A stretch of 64,000 bases of DNA, taken from a phage. Below the pieces are notes generated by a model. The model was not told the origin of the DNA and searched no databases. It saw only the letters and a list, made by a program, of their open reading frames with translations. Every line of letters starts with the position of its first letter. Within the stretch, counting starts at the first letter, position 1. The position numbers and the translations under genes are program-made. The DNA lies in the sequence record PQ724392.1; one strand, given 5' to 3'. Positions 3,392 to 42,738 of the stretch are shown piece by piece.

Positions 3392-6300
3392 ATGGCCGAT
3401 ATTTTAAAACCAGCATTCAGAGCAACATCCGGTCTCGATGCTGCTGGTGAGAAAGTCATTAATGTCGCAAAAGCTGATTACTCAGTTTTATCAGACGGCG
3501 TTAACGTAGGTTTCTTTATAGAAGAAAACACAGTTCAACAATATGATGCAACACGCGGATACAAAAAGAACTTTGCAGTTATTAATGATAACCGTATTTG
3601 GGTTGCTCAACGTGATATTCCGGCACCAGCTGGAGCATTTACCCCTCAGTATTGGTTAGCAACTCGTACTGACCCTAAATGGGAAACTGTTGCATCTCCA
3701 ACTCGTCAGCTTAGCTCCGGGGAATTTATCGCAGTCGACTCAGCTGCAAGCTTTACCACATTTACCTTACCTCCGAACCCGACTGATGGTGATACCATCG
3801 TTATTAAAGATATCGGCGGTAATACCGGTTATAATGAAATTAAAATCCAGTCAAGCAACGTGCCTGGTCAAGGTAACCAAAAGATTGTTCGCTTTGGTAA
3901 TCAGTATTCAGAAGTTTTAATTACCAAACCATTCTCTTATAACATGCTTATCTTTTCAAACCGCTTATGGCAATTTTGGGAAGCAGGTAACGAAGAACGT
4001 GGTATCAGAGTAGAACCGTCGACCGGACGTTTCCATGCACAAGCTGGCGACTTTATTATGCGTCGTTATACAACTGGTGCACCGATTACTTTCATTCTTC
4101 CTAAGTATGCAAACCAGGGTGATATTGTCAAATCTGTTGATATCGATGGCATGGGGCCAACGTTCCACCTGATGGTTGAAACCTTTGACACCAGTTCCAG
4201 TCTTGGGAAAGCTGGCCAGCATCAAATGGAATTCCGTACCACAGGTGATGGTTTCTTCGTTTATAATGCTACCGAAAAACTCTGGTATGTTTGGGACGGT
4301 GATTTTAAAACTCGTCTTCGCGTTATTCGCGACAGCGTTAAACTTTTACCAAACGAAAGTGTCATTGTATTTGGCGAAGATAACTCAACTCCGGCAACGA
4401 TTAATATCGATTTGCCAACTAATGTTTTGCAAGGCGATATTGTTAAGATTGCGCTGAACTATCTCCGTAAATCGCAGACTGTTAATATAAGAGCTGCTGT
4501 TGGCGATAAGATTGCAACTGACATTAAATTGCTGCAATTCCCTAAACGTTCCGAGTATCCACCAGATACAACTTGGGTGATGGTTGATTCATTGACCTTT
4601 AATGGCAACATCAGTTATACTCCGGTTATTGAATTATCATATGCAGAAGATGCAGTGTCTGGAACAAGTTATTGGGTTGTCGCTCAGAACGTCCCGACTG
4701 TCGAACGAGTTGACTCATTAAATGATTCCACGCGTACACGTCTTGGTGTTATTGCTCTGGCAAACCAGACTCAGGCAAACGTTGACCATGAAAATAACCC
4801 AGAAAAAGAACTCGCAATTACCCCTCAGACTTTAGCCAACCGTGTTGCTAAAGAGAACCAACGAGGCATTGCCAGAATCGCAACGACTGCCCAAGTAAAT
4901 CAGAACAGTGATTTTGCATTTGTTGATGATGTAATTATTTCTCCGAAAAAACTCAATGAACGTACGGCAACAGAAACGAGACGTGGACTCGCAGAACTCG
5001 CCACACAGCAAGAAACCAATGCGGGTGTAGATGATACCACAATTATAACTCCAAAGAAACTGCAAGCTCGCCAGGGCTCAGAATCGCTATCTGGTATTGT
5101 AACTTACGTTTCAACGACTGGTGCAACTCCTGCTGCTTCGCGTGAATTAAATGGTACAAACGTTTATAATAAAAATACGGTTAATCTGGTTGTTTCTCCG
5201 AAAGCTCTTGACCAGTACAAAGCTACTTACACTCAGCAAGGCGCGGTTATTCTTGCGGTTGAAAGTGAAGTAATCGCTGGTACTTCACAATCTGGCTGGG
5301 CAAACGCAGTCGTTACTCCAGAAATGTTGCATCGCAAAACTGCTCTTGATTCCCGTATCGGTTTAATCGAGATTGCTACTCAGGTTGAAACAGATGCAGG
5401 AACCGATTATACCAGAGCTGTGACTCCTAAAACGTTAAATGACCGTAAAGCATCAGAAACGTTAACCGGCATAGCCGAGATTGCTACGCAATCAGAATTT
5501 GATACTGGAACTGATGATACTCGTATCTCAACTCCATTAAAAATTAAAAATAGATTTAATAATACTGCTCGTACTTCTGTTAATGCATTAAGTGGTTTAG
5601 TAGAAACAGGGACGCTCTGGGACCATTATAGCCTGAATATTCTTGAAGCAAATGAGACTCAACGTGGCACAGCAAGATTAGCAACTCAGGGTGAAGTCAA
5701 TACTGGCACTGACGATAAAACAATCGTTACTCCGCTTAAATTGATGTCGAAAAAAGCCACTGAAAACGCCGAAGGTATTGTTCGCATTGCGACAAACGCA
5801 GAAGCAACAGCAGGCACATCAAAAGTCTTGGCCATTAGTCCGTCTGCGCTGAAATATATTGTCCAAACAGAAACAACTTGGGAAGCATCTGAAACACTGC
5901 GTGGATTTGTTCGTTTATCTTCCGGTGCAGCTACTTCGGCCGCAACTACAACGACGGGCGCGGGATTTACATATGCAAATGGTGTGTATACCCCGGACCC
6001 AAGTAAACTGGTTAGCTATGCGAAATCTGGATATGCAGTTTCGCCTTACGAATTAAACCGCGTATTGCAAAACTTCTTACCAATAAATGCGATGGCTGTT
6101 AATGCTGAAAAACTGGATAACCTCGATTCAACCCAGTTTATTCGTCGTGATATTGCTCAGACTGTTGAAGGTGTATTAACCCTTACTAAGCAGACAAATA
6201 TCTCTGCTCCGGTTGTATCGACGAGCACTGCGGTGTTTACTGATGTAACGGCTGGTACTTCGACGTTCGGAACTGTGAATGTTGTTAATGGAACTAACAA

Positions 6301-13317: not shown

Positions 13318-13971
13318 ATGGAACCAAAAGTAGGAATATCAATACCCGACCTACTTTTTGGACTTCTTGATAGAATTTTTAAAGATAATGCGACCGGGAA
13401 AGTTGTTTTTTCCCGGGTACTAGTTATTGTTCTATTATTTTTAATGGCGGTAATCTGGTATAAAGGTGATGCAATTTTAGATGCGTACAGGGATGCTTCA
13501 TACGCCTCGTACACTGAAATGATAAGGCAAGACCAGGATAACAGATTTAAAATTGCAGCTATCGAGCAAATCCAGATAGTCCACTCGTCAAGTGGGGCAG
13601 ACTTTACAGCAATATATTCTTTTAGACCAACTAACCTTAACTACTTCGTGGATATGGTGGGATACGAGGGGATATTACCTGATACAGTCGATGAAAAAAA
13701 CTTGGGTGGGTTTCCAATAGATAAGACTTCAGCGGAATATTTGGCGGGGGTTAATGGTAATTATTTCGAATCCAGTACGGAATCTGTATTCTTACCAACA
13801 AAGAAAAAAAGCAGCTTTACATATATGTTCAGCTGCCCATTCTTTAATTTGGAAAACGTTTATGCAGGCACAGTCTCACTGTACTGGTATAAGCAAAAAC
13901 CCGACCTTGGTTTTGATAGGCTTTCTTCTATGTGTGGACAAGCAGGTCGTACGCTTGGGCGTACACGTTAG
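13318..13971 (+). CDS. t: holin T
   Basis: 217-aa ORF; DLLFGLLDRIFKDNATGKV, single N-terminal TM segment and FSCPFFNLENVYAGT.SLYWY match recalled T4 holin (218 aa); late promoter TATAAATA ~20 nt upstream. Confidence 0.9.
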   Translation: MEPKVGISIPDLLFGLLDRIFKDNATGKVVFSRVLVIVLLFLMAVIWYKGDAILDAYRDASYASYTEMIRQDQDNRFKIAAIEQIQIVHSSSGADFTAIYSFRPTNLNYFVDMVGYEGILPDTVDEKNLGGFPIDKTSAEYLAGVNGNYFESSTESVFLPTKKKSSFTYMFSCPFFNLENVYAGTVSLYWYKQKPDLGFDRLSSMCGQAGRTLGRTR

Positions 13972-38392: not shown

Positions 38393-38626
38393 TTAAACTA
38401 CTGGGGTAGGCGTAAACATCGCCGCGTTCTTAGTTCGCCAATCAGCTGCACTAGACGCTACGGTGACATAAGCGGCCTTTTCGGAAGGAAAAGTCTGATA
38501 GTGTGCATTCGCAATACGATGCTCATTTGAATAGATTTCAAACGGAACAGATACTTCAACACCTTTAACTTCTTTACCTTCACCAGCTGGATGCGTAAAG
38601 GTTTTGATATTAACGAAACCACCCAT
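38393..38626 (-). CDS. soc: small outer capsid protein Soc
   Basis: 77-aa ORF; G.VNIKTF........K...G.E.SV.F..YS......A.AHYQTFPSEKAAY.TV matches recalled T4 Soc; late promoter TATAAATA upstream and terminator downstream. Confidence 0.85.
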   Translation of the reverse strand: MGGFVNIKTFTHPAGEGKEVKGVEVSVPFEIYSNEHRIANAHYQTFPSEKAAYVTVASSAADWRTKNAAMFTPTPVV

Positions 38627-38657
38627 AATTAACTCCTTTGTTGTTTAATTACGGGTG

Positions 38658-38665
38658 TATTTATA
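38658..38665 (-). promoter_or_regulatory. late promoter (TATAAATA) for soc
   Basis: exact TATAAATA on the minus strand ~30 nt upstream of the soc ATG. Confidence 0.6.
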
Positions 38666-38667
38666 AC

Positions 38668-39186
38668 TTAATAACCCCGGTCCTGACGAGCAAAGTTCTC
38701 AGCGTTTTTCAGGTAATACAATTTAAAGATTTCTTCTGCAGTCAGTCCAAGGCCATGGAACATGTTCAGAACAAAGTGCAGGATATCAATCATCTCAAAT
38801 TTAATTTCGAGCTGGTCTTCGGGAGACAACTCATCAATACGACGATTACGGAATTCAGCATGTTGGACTTTCCATGGTTTCCATACACTAGATGCAGCTT
38901 TCTCGCCATTAGACATACCACCGAGAGAAGTCAGAAGTTCACGGAATTCGTCGTCGACATAATCTTTCTGGTTACGAAGCCATGCAACAACATCACCTGC
39001 AGTAGTCAATTCATCTGGATGTGAGTTATATTCTGGTTTTTCAGTAGCCAGACGAACTTGCAATGATTTCTGCATATCAAGCATAATCTGCAGCGGGTCA
39101 GTACCTTTTGTAATCGCATTGTCATAAGCTTCTTCAGCTTTATCAACACCAGCAATCAGTTGGGAACACTCGTTAAAATGAGCCAT
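38668..39186 (-). CDS. 56: dCTP pyrophosphatase gp56 (MazG-like)
   Basis: 172 aa from ATG with AAGGAAA SD; MAHFNEC..L..GVDKA, DPLQ.MLDMQ, ETAGDVV.W.R.QKD..DDEFRELLTSLG, SPEDQLEIKFE..D..HFVLNMF.GLG..AEEIFKLYYLKN.ENFARQD.GY match recalled T4 gp56. Confidence 0.9.
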   Translation of the reverse strand: MAHFNECSQLIAGVDKAEEAYDNAITKGTDPLQIMLDMQKSLQVRLATEKPEYNSHPDELTTAGDVVAWLRNQKDYVDDEFRELLTSLGGMSNGEKAASSVWKPWKVQHAEFRNRRIDELSPEDQLEIKFEMIDILHFVLNMFHGLGLTAEEIFKLYYLKNAENFARQDRGY

Positions 39187-39271
39187 TATATTTTTCCTTA
39201 TCAATTCATGTTATTTTGTATGTTAATTATATCATATTGGGTTGAAGCATAAATACACGGAAGGAGGATAT

Positions 39272-39469
39272 ATGCTCAAACTATCTAGTCTAATTCAAGC
39301 CATCAAAGGCAGTCGTAAGCGAACGATTCTGGTCCTTTCGATACTCTGTTTAGTTCTACTCTGGAACTTCGTTGTTGCCCCTGTTGCATTGACACATGGT
39401 GTTATATTACCAGTCATTGCACTCGAATCGGTTGTAGATGTTTCACTGGCATTAATCGGCCTTATATAG
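39272..39469 (+). CDS. small hydrophobic protein on the opposite strand (65 aa)
   Basis: ATG preceded by AAGGAGG; two predicted TM segments (ILVLSILCLVLLWNFVVAPVAL, VILPVIALESVVDVSLALIGLI); terminator hairpin downstream; only plus-strand gene among minus-strand early genes. Confidence 0.4.
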   Translation: MLKLSSLIQAIKGSRKRTILVLSILCLVLLWNFVVAPVALTHGVILPVIALESVVDVSLALIGLI

Positions 39470-39528
39470 GTGGAACTATGTGAACATTATTCTATCAGAT
39501 TTGGAAATTAACCAGTAAGAAAGACAAG

Positions 39529-39565
39529 AAACATCATGGGCTAAAAAGTCCATGATGTTTTTCTG
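39529..39565. terminator. bidirectional rho-independent terminator between gene 61 and the plus-strand small ORF
   Basis: 11-bp stem AAACATCATGG / CCATGATGTTT with 10-nt loop, T-runs on both strands. Confidence 0.65.
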
Positions 39566-39587
39566 TGGAACTTACCGGAATCCCTTC

Positions 39588-40616
39588 CTAAACTTTTGCG
39601 TACTTCGAAAGTCGCATTCTCGCCATCAACCCTTGAGCAACGTTATCGGCCATATATGATTCGATTTGTTCAGGGGTTGCGCCCTCCGATTTAACCATCT
39701 CATTTATGTCTTTCGTATGCCATGGTGCATTGTCCCAGAACATAACGGCTTCACCCGCTTCAACGAGCTTCTTCATACGTTTAATCGTATCCGGATGTCT
39801 TGGCTCGTTGTCCATTACCCATACTCGGGTTTCAGCATAAGGAACGGCTTCCAATGCTAATGTTCCACCAGTTATCGCAATGCTGTTAGGGATAAACAAA
39901 CTATCAATCGGACCTTCCATTACCCACACGCGCTTGCGCTCATCAATCTTGTCTACGCCATAGACTTTGGAAGCTTCTGGGTGAGCTTTGATTGTGATAT
40001 ATTTTTGTGGTGCATCTTTGCGAAGAGCTCGTCCTTGGAAAGATTCGATTTCTTTTTTGCCGTTGAAGATAGGAATAACCAAGCGTGGTTCATTCGTTTC
40101 ATTCTTATACGTCCCAGGATTAACGGAGTTAACTAATGCAGGCCATTTGTTTGTAAACCATAACCGGTTCCAAACATTGCTCGGAATACACCGACTTTTT
40201 ACATACTTAACTATCGGATGCGCTTCTGGTAAAGTATCGATTCTTTCGCAAAAAGCAAGCTCTTCAATAACCGGAGTTTTTTCTTGTTCTTTCGGAGCTT
40301 CTGCAACTTCATTACGTTGTCGACCGAAGGCGTTTTCCTTGTACTTCTCAACCATATATTCCCGGTGCAAATCCGGCTCAAACTCTTTTATGTATTTGCT
40401 TATATGCGTGGAGTAGTCACAGTTAAAACATTTCACGTAAACCGCACCATCAGATGGATTGGTATACGCCCAGAATCGAGCCTTGTGTGAATCTTTCTGG
40501 GAGTCACCACAAACCTTACAACGACAGTTTGCCTTAAATGTGCTCCCGGTGACTTCTCTGTAACGTGGTTGATACGATAAAGCTTTGACTGCAAATTCTC
40601 TATCAATATATGACAT
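39588..40616 (-). CDS. 61: DNA primase gp61
   Basis: 342-aa ORF; N-terminal zinc ribbon (CRCKVCGDS....C.NCDYS) and TOPRIM core; same length as T4 gp61. Confidence 0.9.
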   Translation of the reverse strand: MSYIDREFAVKALSYQPRYREVTGSTFKANCRCKVCGDSQKDSHKARFWAYTNPSDGAVYVKCFNCDYSTHISKYIKEFEPDLHREYMVEKYKENAFGRQRNEVAEAPKEQEKTPVIEELAFCERIDTLPEAHPIVKYVKSRCIPSNVWNRLWFTNKWPALVNSVNPGTYKNETNEPRLVIPIFNGKKEIESFQGRALRKDAPQKYITIKAHPEASKVYGVDKIDERKRVWVMEGPIDSLFIPNSIAITGGTLALEAVPYAETRVWVMDNEPRHPDTIKRMKKLVEAGEAVMFWDNAPWHTKDINEMVKSEGATPEQIESYMADNVAQGLMARMRLSKYAKV

Positions 40617-40648
40617 AGTTTCCTCATTTCAATGGCCTCGGAGGACCA

Positions 40649-40816
40649 TTATACTGTAGGTTTATCGTCTTTATTCTTACGCTTTTTTGATGGGATTTGT
40701 TCAGGGCCTTTATTGACAACTGCCCCGGAAGTGGTACCTGTTGCGATATTAGTTGGGTTTCCACCTGCATCACCGGCAACCATATCTTCATTGATAAAAT
40801 CTTTGAATGTTTTCAT
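40649..40816 (-). CDS. small hypothetical protein (55 aa)
   Basis: ATG with AAAGGGGGTG SD; late-promoter-like TATAAATA 17 nt upstream; hand-translated MKTFKDFINEDMVAGDAGGNPTNIATG... Confidence 0.4.
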   Translation of the reverse strand: MKTFKDFINEDMVAGDAGGNPTNIATGTTSGAVVNKGPEQIPSKKRKNKDDKPTV

Positions 40817-40832
40817 AACACCCCCTTTCCGC

Positions 40833-40840
40833 TATTTATA
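40833..40840 (-). promoter_or_regulatory. late-promoter-like TATAAATA upstream of small ORF 40649-40816
   Basis: exact TATAAATA on minus strand 17 nt upstream of the ATG. Confidence 0.45.
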
Positions 40841-41027
40841 CAATGAAGATAGCTTTATTGCCATTTGCATCAGTCACTTCATAGGTGTCTTCATGATACA
40901 ACGGAATAATCCAGGTAACACCATCATCAGCGATAACATGGATTGCTTCTTGGTCTTGCGACACGATTTCATATTCTTCAAAAATCTGGAAGACCGAAAT
41001 CTTAGAGCCCGTACACATTGCAGTCAT
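40836..41027 (-). CDS. hypothetical protein
   Basis: 63-aa ORF, co-oriented. Confidence 0.45.
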   Translation of the reverse strand: MTAMCTGSKISVFQIFEEYEIVSQDQEAIHVIADDGVTWIIPLYHEDTYEVTDANGNKAIFIV

Positions 41028-41069
41028 ATTAACCTCGCTTCATGAAGGCATTAAAAATCTGGTCATCAA
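41025..41069 (-). repeat. 45-bp direct repeat, copy 1 (gene junction cassette)
   Basis: catattaacctcgcttcatgaaggcattaaaaatctggtcatcaa; 42/45 identical to copy at 41386-41430. Confidence 0.8.
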
Positions 41070-42525: not shown

Positions 42526-42738
42526 TTAGATTTCCTCAGATAAGTGGATGCGATAATCATATTCAAAAACTTTATTGTCATTAACAAAGGCTTTCACCAG
42601 CGCATTATTCACTTCCGCATACTGCACTGTAACCCATTCAATCATATTTTGGTCACTAACATCCAACATGGTTTCTTTGGTAAACATATTACCATTTTCA
42701 AACCAACCAATAAATACTACGTTCTCTAATTTATACAT
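42526..42738 (-). CDS. dmd: Dmd antitoxin (inhibitor of RnlA/LsoA-type toxins)
   Basis: 70-aa ORF; VVF.GWF.N..MFTKE........W.T.QYAEVN.ALVKAF..D.KV.E.D.R matches recalled T4 Dmd (60 aa); location between 61 and 41. Confidence 0.7.
   Translation of the reverse strand: MYKLENVVFIGWFENGNMFTKETMLDVSDQNMIEWVTVQYAEVNNALVKAFVNDNKVFEYDYRIHLSEEI

Follow-up and report, generated by a model that had tools for sequence, protein, structure and literature searches.

The closest described relatives of the small gene reported here are the members of PHROG 2024, a protein family that is already catalogued, without known function. RB69ORF029w, RB32ORF030w and VR7ORF033w belong to it and, together with an ORF of T4, are orthologs of our ORF; a search of the literature, T4 transcript maps and screens included, returned no functional, expression, protein or phenotype data on family members. 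Class II holins and pinholins, such as S68 of phage 21, are a second point of reference, being about 65–70 aa long with hydrophobic helices and polar residues in the membrane span. A third is provided by the T4 late genes and their promoters. Among the T4 late sites that have been listed (n = 50), 32 are perfect and 9 carry A at −13, which is the least conserved late-promoter position and one at which T is poorly kept in relatives (PMC2988020, PMC1524935). Early and middle transcripts of the T4 type all run counterclockwise (PMC2988020), so that a clockwise gene must be late.

Results

The window is a stretch of 64,000 nucleotides from a phage (sequence record PQ724392.1). Over the small-gene interval and its flanks it is 99.8% identical to Escherichia phage CJ20, and the window phage, judged by its sequence, is a Gaprivervirus (Straboviridae, Tevenvirinae). 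A sequence-only reading had singled out the ORF at 39272–39469 as the only plus-strand ORF with a convincing start, which is valid across 14–64 kb, where the other plus-strand ORFs that fit into gaps have no Shine-Dalgarno sequence. The features of the interval are as follows.

38668–39186, minus strand: gene 56, dCTPase, left neighbour (sequence and profile matches)
39226–39249, minus strand: MotA-box-type middle promoter for gene 56 (sequence, conserved in Gapriverviruses)
39248–39255, plus strand: CATAAATA, putative variant T4-type late promoter (−13 to −6) with a predicted start near 39261 (core conservation)
39261–39267, plus strand: Shine-Dalgarno sequence AAGGAGG (read from sequence)
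39272–39469, plus strand: gene for a 65-aa small membrane protein (PHROG 2024, tblastn, dN/dS, structure model)
39470–39590, plus strand: remnant of tandem paralog B (alignment with the intact copies in MN01, VR25 and VR26)
39524–39566, both strands: hairpin, candidate two-way terminator for the small gene and gene 61 (folding)
39588–40616, minus strand: gene 61, DNA primase, convergent right neighbour (sequence and profile matches)

The ORF runs from an ATG at 39272 to a TAG stop at 39467–39469 and encodes 65 aa; the region around its start reads gCATAAATAcacggAAGGAGGatatATG on the plus strand of the window, with only 4 nt between the Shine-Dalgarno sequence and the ATG. Across the T4-like lineages compared, a GGAG-type site, mostly GGAGG, is retained upstream of the gene. 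The protein matches the PHROG 2024 profile over residues 1–65 of 65 (E 8.3e-26), and tblastn with the window ORF finds 695 phage records in two identity classes, Gaprivervirus at >78% and Tequatrovirus at 43–54%, with a length that is always about 65–66 codons. Among relatives as low as 25% identity the open frame is maintained at 60–74 codons. The dN/dS of the ORF is 0.25–0.6 in most Gaprivervirus pairs and 0.06–0.2 in most T4-type pairs, estimates that derive from few, related sequences and are unstable for near-identical pairs. Variable sites at the first, second and third codon positions number 14, 4 and 15 in one count and 7, 2 and 13 in the other, and this sparing of second positions matches the pattern that would be expected of a hydrophobic coding sequence. 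By these comparative measures, ORF 39272–39469 is a genuine gene under purifying selection. The proposal of an opposite-strand gene with a strong ribosome-binding site is thereby borne out: AAGGAGG and the ATG at 39272 are both present, and the family match and selection agree.

In GenBank, the CJ20 record starts the small ORF at an upstream TTG, which lengthens the product to 75 aa; this start would precede the putative late promoter. Another plus-strand gene call in that record, CJ20_018 (137 aa; window 40632–41045), lacks a ribosome-binding site, and two minus-strand ORFs annotated in VR7 and EAWsc9, namely 61.1 and an RB69ORF033c-like gene, overlap with it. It is probably a spurious gene call.

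Three tblastn queries with family members retrieved 695, 127 and 594 phage records, and the family profile, run against 1.84 billion representative proteins, returned just a handful of clusters. The sequences divide into two subfamilies, A (the window ORF, the T4 ORF and RB69ORF029w) and B (Dhakavirus, Kanagawavirus, Marfavirus, Mosugukvirus and Gelderlandvirus), and every member tested, distant ones included, matches PHROG 2024. The gene was found in all Tevenvirinae genera examined, with orthologs at the same place in T4, RB69 and JS10 and in Klebsiella, Enterobacter, Pectobacterium, Salmonella and Edwardsiella phages. It is convergent with primase gene 61 in all T4-like loci examined, the stop codons usually overlapping; the neighbour on the far side is variable and may be gene 56, dam, a homing endonuclease or other small ORFs. 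Searches of the window ORF against Pfam, NCBIfam, PADLOC and Rfam gave no informative match, Foldseek searches of PDB and BFVD gave family members or noise only, and the family HMM found no further paralog among the proteins encoded in the window.

The T4 ortholog has 66 codons and lies between dam and gene 61 (NC_000866 17738–17938; L023 3239–3439; L004 1492–1692), with AAAGGAGG and GATAAATA upstream. It is missing from the annotation of NC_000866, AF158101, MT984581 and KJ477684; many other Tequatrovirus records annotate it, and the RB69 annotation includes the ortholog as ORF029w. In the T4 reference records the 309-bp ‘gap’ between dam and gene 61 contains this 66-codon gene, along with a ribosome-binding site that is nearly perfect and the core of a late promoter. 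On the minus strand of T4 (L004 1505–1535), an 8-bp hairpin followed by UAAUUUUUGU lies within the first codons of the ortholog, so that a gene 61 terminator is embedded in the convergent small gene there. This hairpin carries a terminator annotation in fPS-90 and SA21RB, and it is absent from the window and from RB69.

The sole homolog outside the T4-like phages, at 4001–4210 of contig L019, is the exception to convergence with gene 61. It is located directly downstream of tail genes, on the same strand, and is followed by a recombinase; the contig carries a tail-tip protein, an endonuclease VII-like gene and a serine recombinase. The context of this homolog showed no lysis cassette and no identifiable neighbours, and searches of phage and bacterial genome collections found no relatives of it.

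As had been pointed out from the sequence, the octamer upstream of the small gene is one mismatch from the late consensus: CATAAATA at 39248–39255 matches TATAAATA at 7 of 8 bases, with C instead of T at −13. Comparison with relatives strengthens this assignment. In 13 of 14 lineages the ATG is preceded, at a distance of 13–22 nt, by the core ATAAATA, with a chance expectation of 0.006 per site, and the lineages that share it have flanks that no longer align. The base at −13 varies by lineage and may be C, G, A or T. On both strands of the 64-kb window VATAAATA occurs 2 times vs 16.6 ± 3.7 expected, which indicates that the late-promoter core is avoided where it is unused; the exact TATAAATA occurs 7 times vs 4.8 expected, including sites before t (13292) and soc (38658, minus strand), both known to be late genes. 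The promoter core and the clockwise polarity give comparative support to the claim that the peptide is expressed late, and late transcription of the small gene is well supported as an inference from these features. With C at −13 the promoter may be weak. The stronger idea that −13 is never T, i.e., that the promoter is deliberately weak, was dropped, as kv8, Q7622 and CIP9 have the exact TATAAATA. We also rejected the idea that CATAAATA is solely the A/T-rich flank of a MotA box, since ATAAATA persists in T4, L021 and L022 where there is no opposite MotA box. The site upstream of ORF029w is absent from the 31 RB69 late promoters predicted in a published HMM scan.

Several further octamers in the window deserve mention. 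The T holin (217 aa) and Soc (77 aa; 38393–38665, minus strand) each have the exact TATAAATA about 20–35 nt before the start, and t and soc are thus useful internal controls for the late promoters of the window phage. The exact TATAAATA is also seen at 40833–40840 on the minus strand, just upstream of the minus-strand ORF 40649–40816 at the 61.1 position, which suggests that this ‘early-region’ gene may also be transcribed late. The other AATAAATA, at 42709, is within a minus-strand gene and has no plus-strand ORF following it.

On the opposite strand, the gene 56 middle promoter consists of TGCTTCA (39249–39243), an 11-nt spacer and TATAAT (39231–39226). The MotA box described in Hinton's work is reportedly (a/t)(a/t)(a/t)TGCTT(t/c)A, about 12 bp upstream of a TAnnnT −10 element; the minus strand reads TTTATGCTTCA, 11 nt, TATAAT, in line with a MotA-dependent middle promoter. 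VR20 and SP18 have TGCTTTA at the MotA-box site, and the predicted RB69 middle promoter Pm:16038 is located at the equivalent site. The gene 56 middle promoter has no −35 hexamer and was, as would be expected, missed by a simple promoter scan. The MotA promoter and the CATAAATA octamer share two bases and form a very compact divergent promoter pair.

The interval had also been called origin-like. The T4 annotation puts oriA just within gene 56, at its 5′ end, with the gene 56 transcript as the primer. The T4 ortholog of the small gene is separated from gene 56 by dam, lying a kilobase away, and stays with gene 61. The AT-rich stretch at 39150–39300 (GC 0.29–0.30) is simply the promoter gap. 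The link of the small gene to a replication origin is therefore weak, and ‘origin-like’ fits at most the gene 56 promoter, not the small gene.

Downstream of the small gene (copy A) and before the primase gene, MN01, VR25 and VR26 have a second, intact ORF of 66 aa, which belongs to subfamily B. In the window this copy B is decayed: an ATG-TGA at 39478–39483 is accompanied by a 2-nt deletion, and 85 bp have been deleted between short direct repeats, with the junction near 39570–39577. The last codons of the remnant overlap the end of gene 61. With MN01 copy B as the tblastn query, the CJ20 match is confined to residues 1–33. Other Gapriverviruses show different lesions, namely, a 1-nt insertion in VR7, a 5′ deletion in SP18, loss of the start codon in EAWsc9, and a deletion with a homing endonuclease nearby in DK-13 and RZ. 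From these alignments copy B appears to have been lost independently in at least four ways, and with copy A present copy B would have been dispensable.

The hairpin at 39524–39566 occupies the former helix-coding part of copy B. It consists, on the plus strand, of a 19-nt 5′ arm, a 4-nt loop and 16 + 3 pairs, the core being an 11-bp stem. The 118-nt interval folds far more stably than shuffled sequences, at −35.3 kcal/mol on the plus strand (z −4.9) and at −33.9 kcal/mol on the minus strand (z −4.3). This stem had been described as an 11-bp-stem bidirectional terminator. The stem is strong; the plus-strand T run is TTTTTCT, whose UUUUUCU partly pairs with the A run, the minus-strand tail is only T-rich (TTTCTTGTCTTTCTT), and a simple consensus terminator scan did not call the hairpin.

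The perfect palindrome is found solely in CJ20 and the window. Its predicted stability increases along the decay of copy B, from −10.2 kcal/mol in VR26 through −13.9 in MN01 and −17.5 in EAWsc9 to −23.2 in the window. At positions 39543–39552, where UPEC07 has TTTTAGCTCT, the window reads AAAAAGTCCA; seven of the ten bases differ, and the sequence around them is identical to that of UPEC07. EAWsc9 differs by seven substitutions too. Of the 15 bases of the new hairpin arm, 14 match the reverse complement of the old arm, and the perfect stem looks like the result of a single templated quasipalindrome correction. On this comparative evidence the hairpin is not an ancestral, designed terminator but lies within a dead gene copy.

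The 65-aa protein has a basic N-terminus (KGSRKR), with a net charge of +5 over the first 20 residues, followed by a hydrophobic core that passes any transmembrane threshold by hydropathy. The AlphaFold model (pLDDT 83) places a helix at residues 2–41, a coil at 42–50 and a short 12-residue helix at 51–62. Residues W31, P37, G43 and P47 are invariant over both subfamilies, N32 and A39 are nearly invariant, and hydrophobicity of the C-terminal segment is confined to subfamily A. Hydropathy and the model agree with the proposal that the product is a membrane peptide. Of the two transmembrane segments first suggested, one is a firm helix (2–41); the second (51–62) is short and uncertain, and for RB69ORF029w TMHMM predicts a single transmembrane segment, at 21–41. 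A polar Asn within a membrane helix drives helix association; from these features we take the protein to sit in the membrane with its N-terminus inside and with such an Asn in its helix.

Discussion

On the comparative evidence above, we hold with moderate confidence that the small ORF is a genuine late gene, conserved across Tevenvirinae. Late in infection, RNA polymerase with gp55/gp33 and the gp45 clamp would initiate near 39261 and produce a short mRNA, from which a protein with a basic, cytoplasmic N-terminus (KGSRKR) would be translated. One inner-membrane helix would bear the W31-N32...P37...G43...P47 motif, and the short hydrophobic C-terminal helix may end at or in the membrane. Transcription of the small gene in the window phage probably stops at the hairpin (39524–39566), which would also end the primase message from the other side.

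As to what such a protein does, our preferred but tentative proposal is that the helix self-associates via its buried Asn and that the protein, a non-essential envelope accessory made late, acts at the inner membrane to modulate the timing of lysis, or lysis inhibition, without being the holin. To our knowledge, classical rapid-lysis mutant screens never hit the small gene. A related and more speculative suggestion is that the envelope programme of T-even phages includes, as a part so far overlooked, this small inner-membrane protein that essentially all T-even-type phages would make late, perhaps as a partner in the holin/RI/RIII lysis-inhibition circuit or as a membrane anchor. If so, the interchangeable subfamilies A and B would be natural swap variants. 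Should the role turn out to involve the timing of lysis or control of the envelope, a textbook system would be extended.

A rather unlikely alternative is that the protein blocks superinfection or protects the envelope in the manner of Imm or Sp, acting against incoming DNA or a membrane-based host defence. A small inner-membrane protein whose conserved motif may face the periplasm would suit such a function, and the homolog on contig L019 is located just after tail genes and before a recombinase, the position in which temperate phages often carry exclusion genes. However, Imm and Sp act early in T4, whereas the small gene can only be late, and the protein has neither similarity to other proteins encoded in the window nor a match in PADLOC or Pfam. 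Less probable is a membrane factor for particle assembly, one that, for example, seats the portal or prohead initiation complex on the inner membrane. Its late timing is shared with the structural genes, and the L019 homolog follows tail genes on their own strand. No morphogenesis gene, however, is nearby in the T4-like phages, we know of no essential T4 assembly gene that maps at this locus, and the repeated loss of copy B suggests a function that tolerates change.

We consider it very improbable that the protein is a holin or pinholin, as it is labelled in two database records (‘holin family protein’ in EAWsc9 and ‘Holin’ for OE5505). It is small and hydrophobic, as a holin would be, but these labels come from bulk annotation without experiments. 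The C-terminus reads ...SLALIGLI and the last 25 residues have a net charge of −2, so the charged tail of a holin is absent. Curated holin families in Pfam and NCBIfam gave no match at permissive E-values, and the neighbours, dCTPase and primase, do not form a lysis cassette and include no endolysin. The idea that the 65-aa protein is the holin of the phage was rejected because the canonical T holin is encoded at 13318–13971 (Phage_holin_T, E 8.7e-67) with an exact late promoter.

Finally, the ORF could be incidental to an interval kept for its promoters, its terminators, an antisense RNA against the primase mRNA or an oriA-like origin, a reading favoured by the overlapping promoters on both strands, by the T4-type clockwise transcript, which the overlap of the stop codons forces to continue antisense into gene 61, and by the placement of the T4 gene 61 terminator hairpin inside the ORF and of oriA at the start of gene 56, but rendered highly improbable by a frame that stays open down to 25% identity, by spared second codon positions and dN/dS <1, by a gene that travels with gene 61 and not with gene 56 or oriA, and by the lack of an Rfam match.

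T4, one of the best-annotated viruses, thus has a gene in the dam–gene 61 gap that its reference records leave unannotated. The gene is a cheap addition to the T4 gene list and a defined target for geneticists. The dead copy B, for its part, is a small, clear case of gene redundancy resolved, in which a hairpin was apparently perfected by one templated mutation.

Among known systems, class II holins resemble the window protein in size, hydrophobic helices and intramembrane polar residues, but the window protein lacks a charged tail, a conserved dual start, a lysis cassette and a profile match, and the phage already has a dedicated holin. With T4 Imm, Sp and RI it would share the character of a small T-even envelope protein that modifies the infected cell; Imm and Sp differ in being encoded on the early strand, rI is located outside the window, and the family HMM found no similarity to such proteins in the window. 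Like the T4 late genes with TATAAATA, such as soc and t, the small gene has the promoter core at the right distance from its start and the clockwise polarity that is late only, whereas its own site has C for T at −13 and shares bases with an opposite middle promoter. Quasipalindrome-templated mutations were reportedly first described by Ripley in T4 rII. The change seen here appears to be of the same kind, with seven changes in 10 nt that turn an imperfect palindrome into a perfect one, and it differs in that it is deduced from two natural isolates compared. The nearest likeness is to the PHROG 2024 members RB69ORF029w, RB32ORF030w and VR7ORF033w, which have the same profile, strand and size and likewise lie between gene 61 and gene 56, dam or a homing endonuclease; the window carries a subfamily A gene plus a dead subfamily B copy and shows no difference in kind from these relatives.
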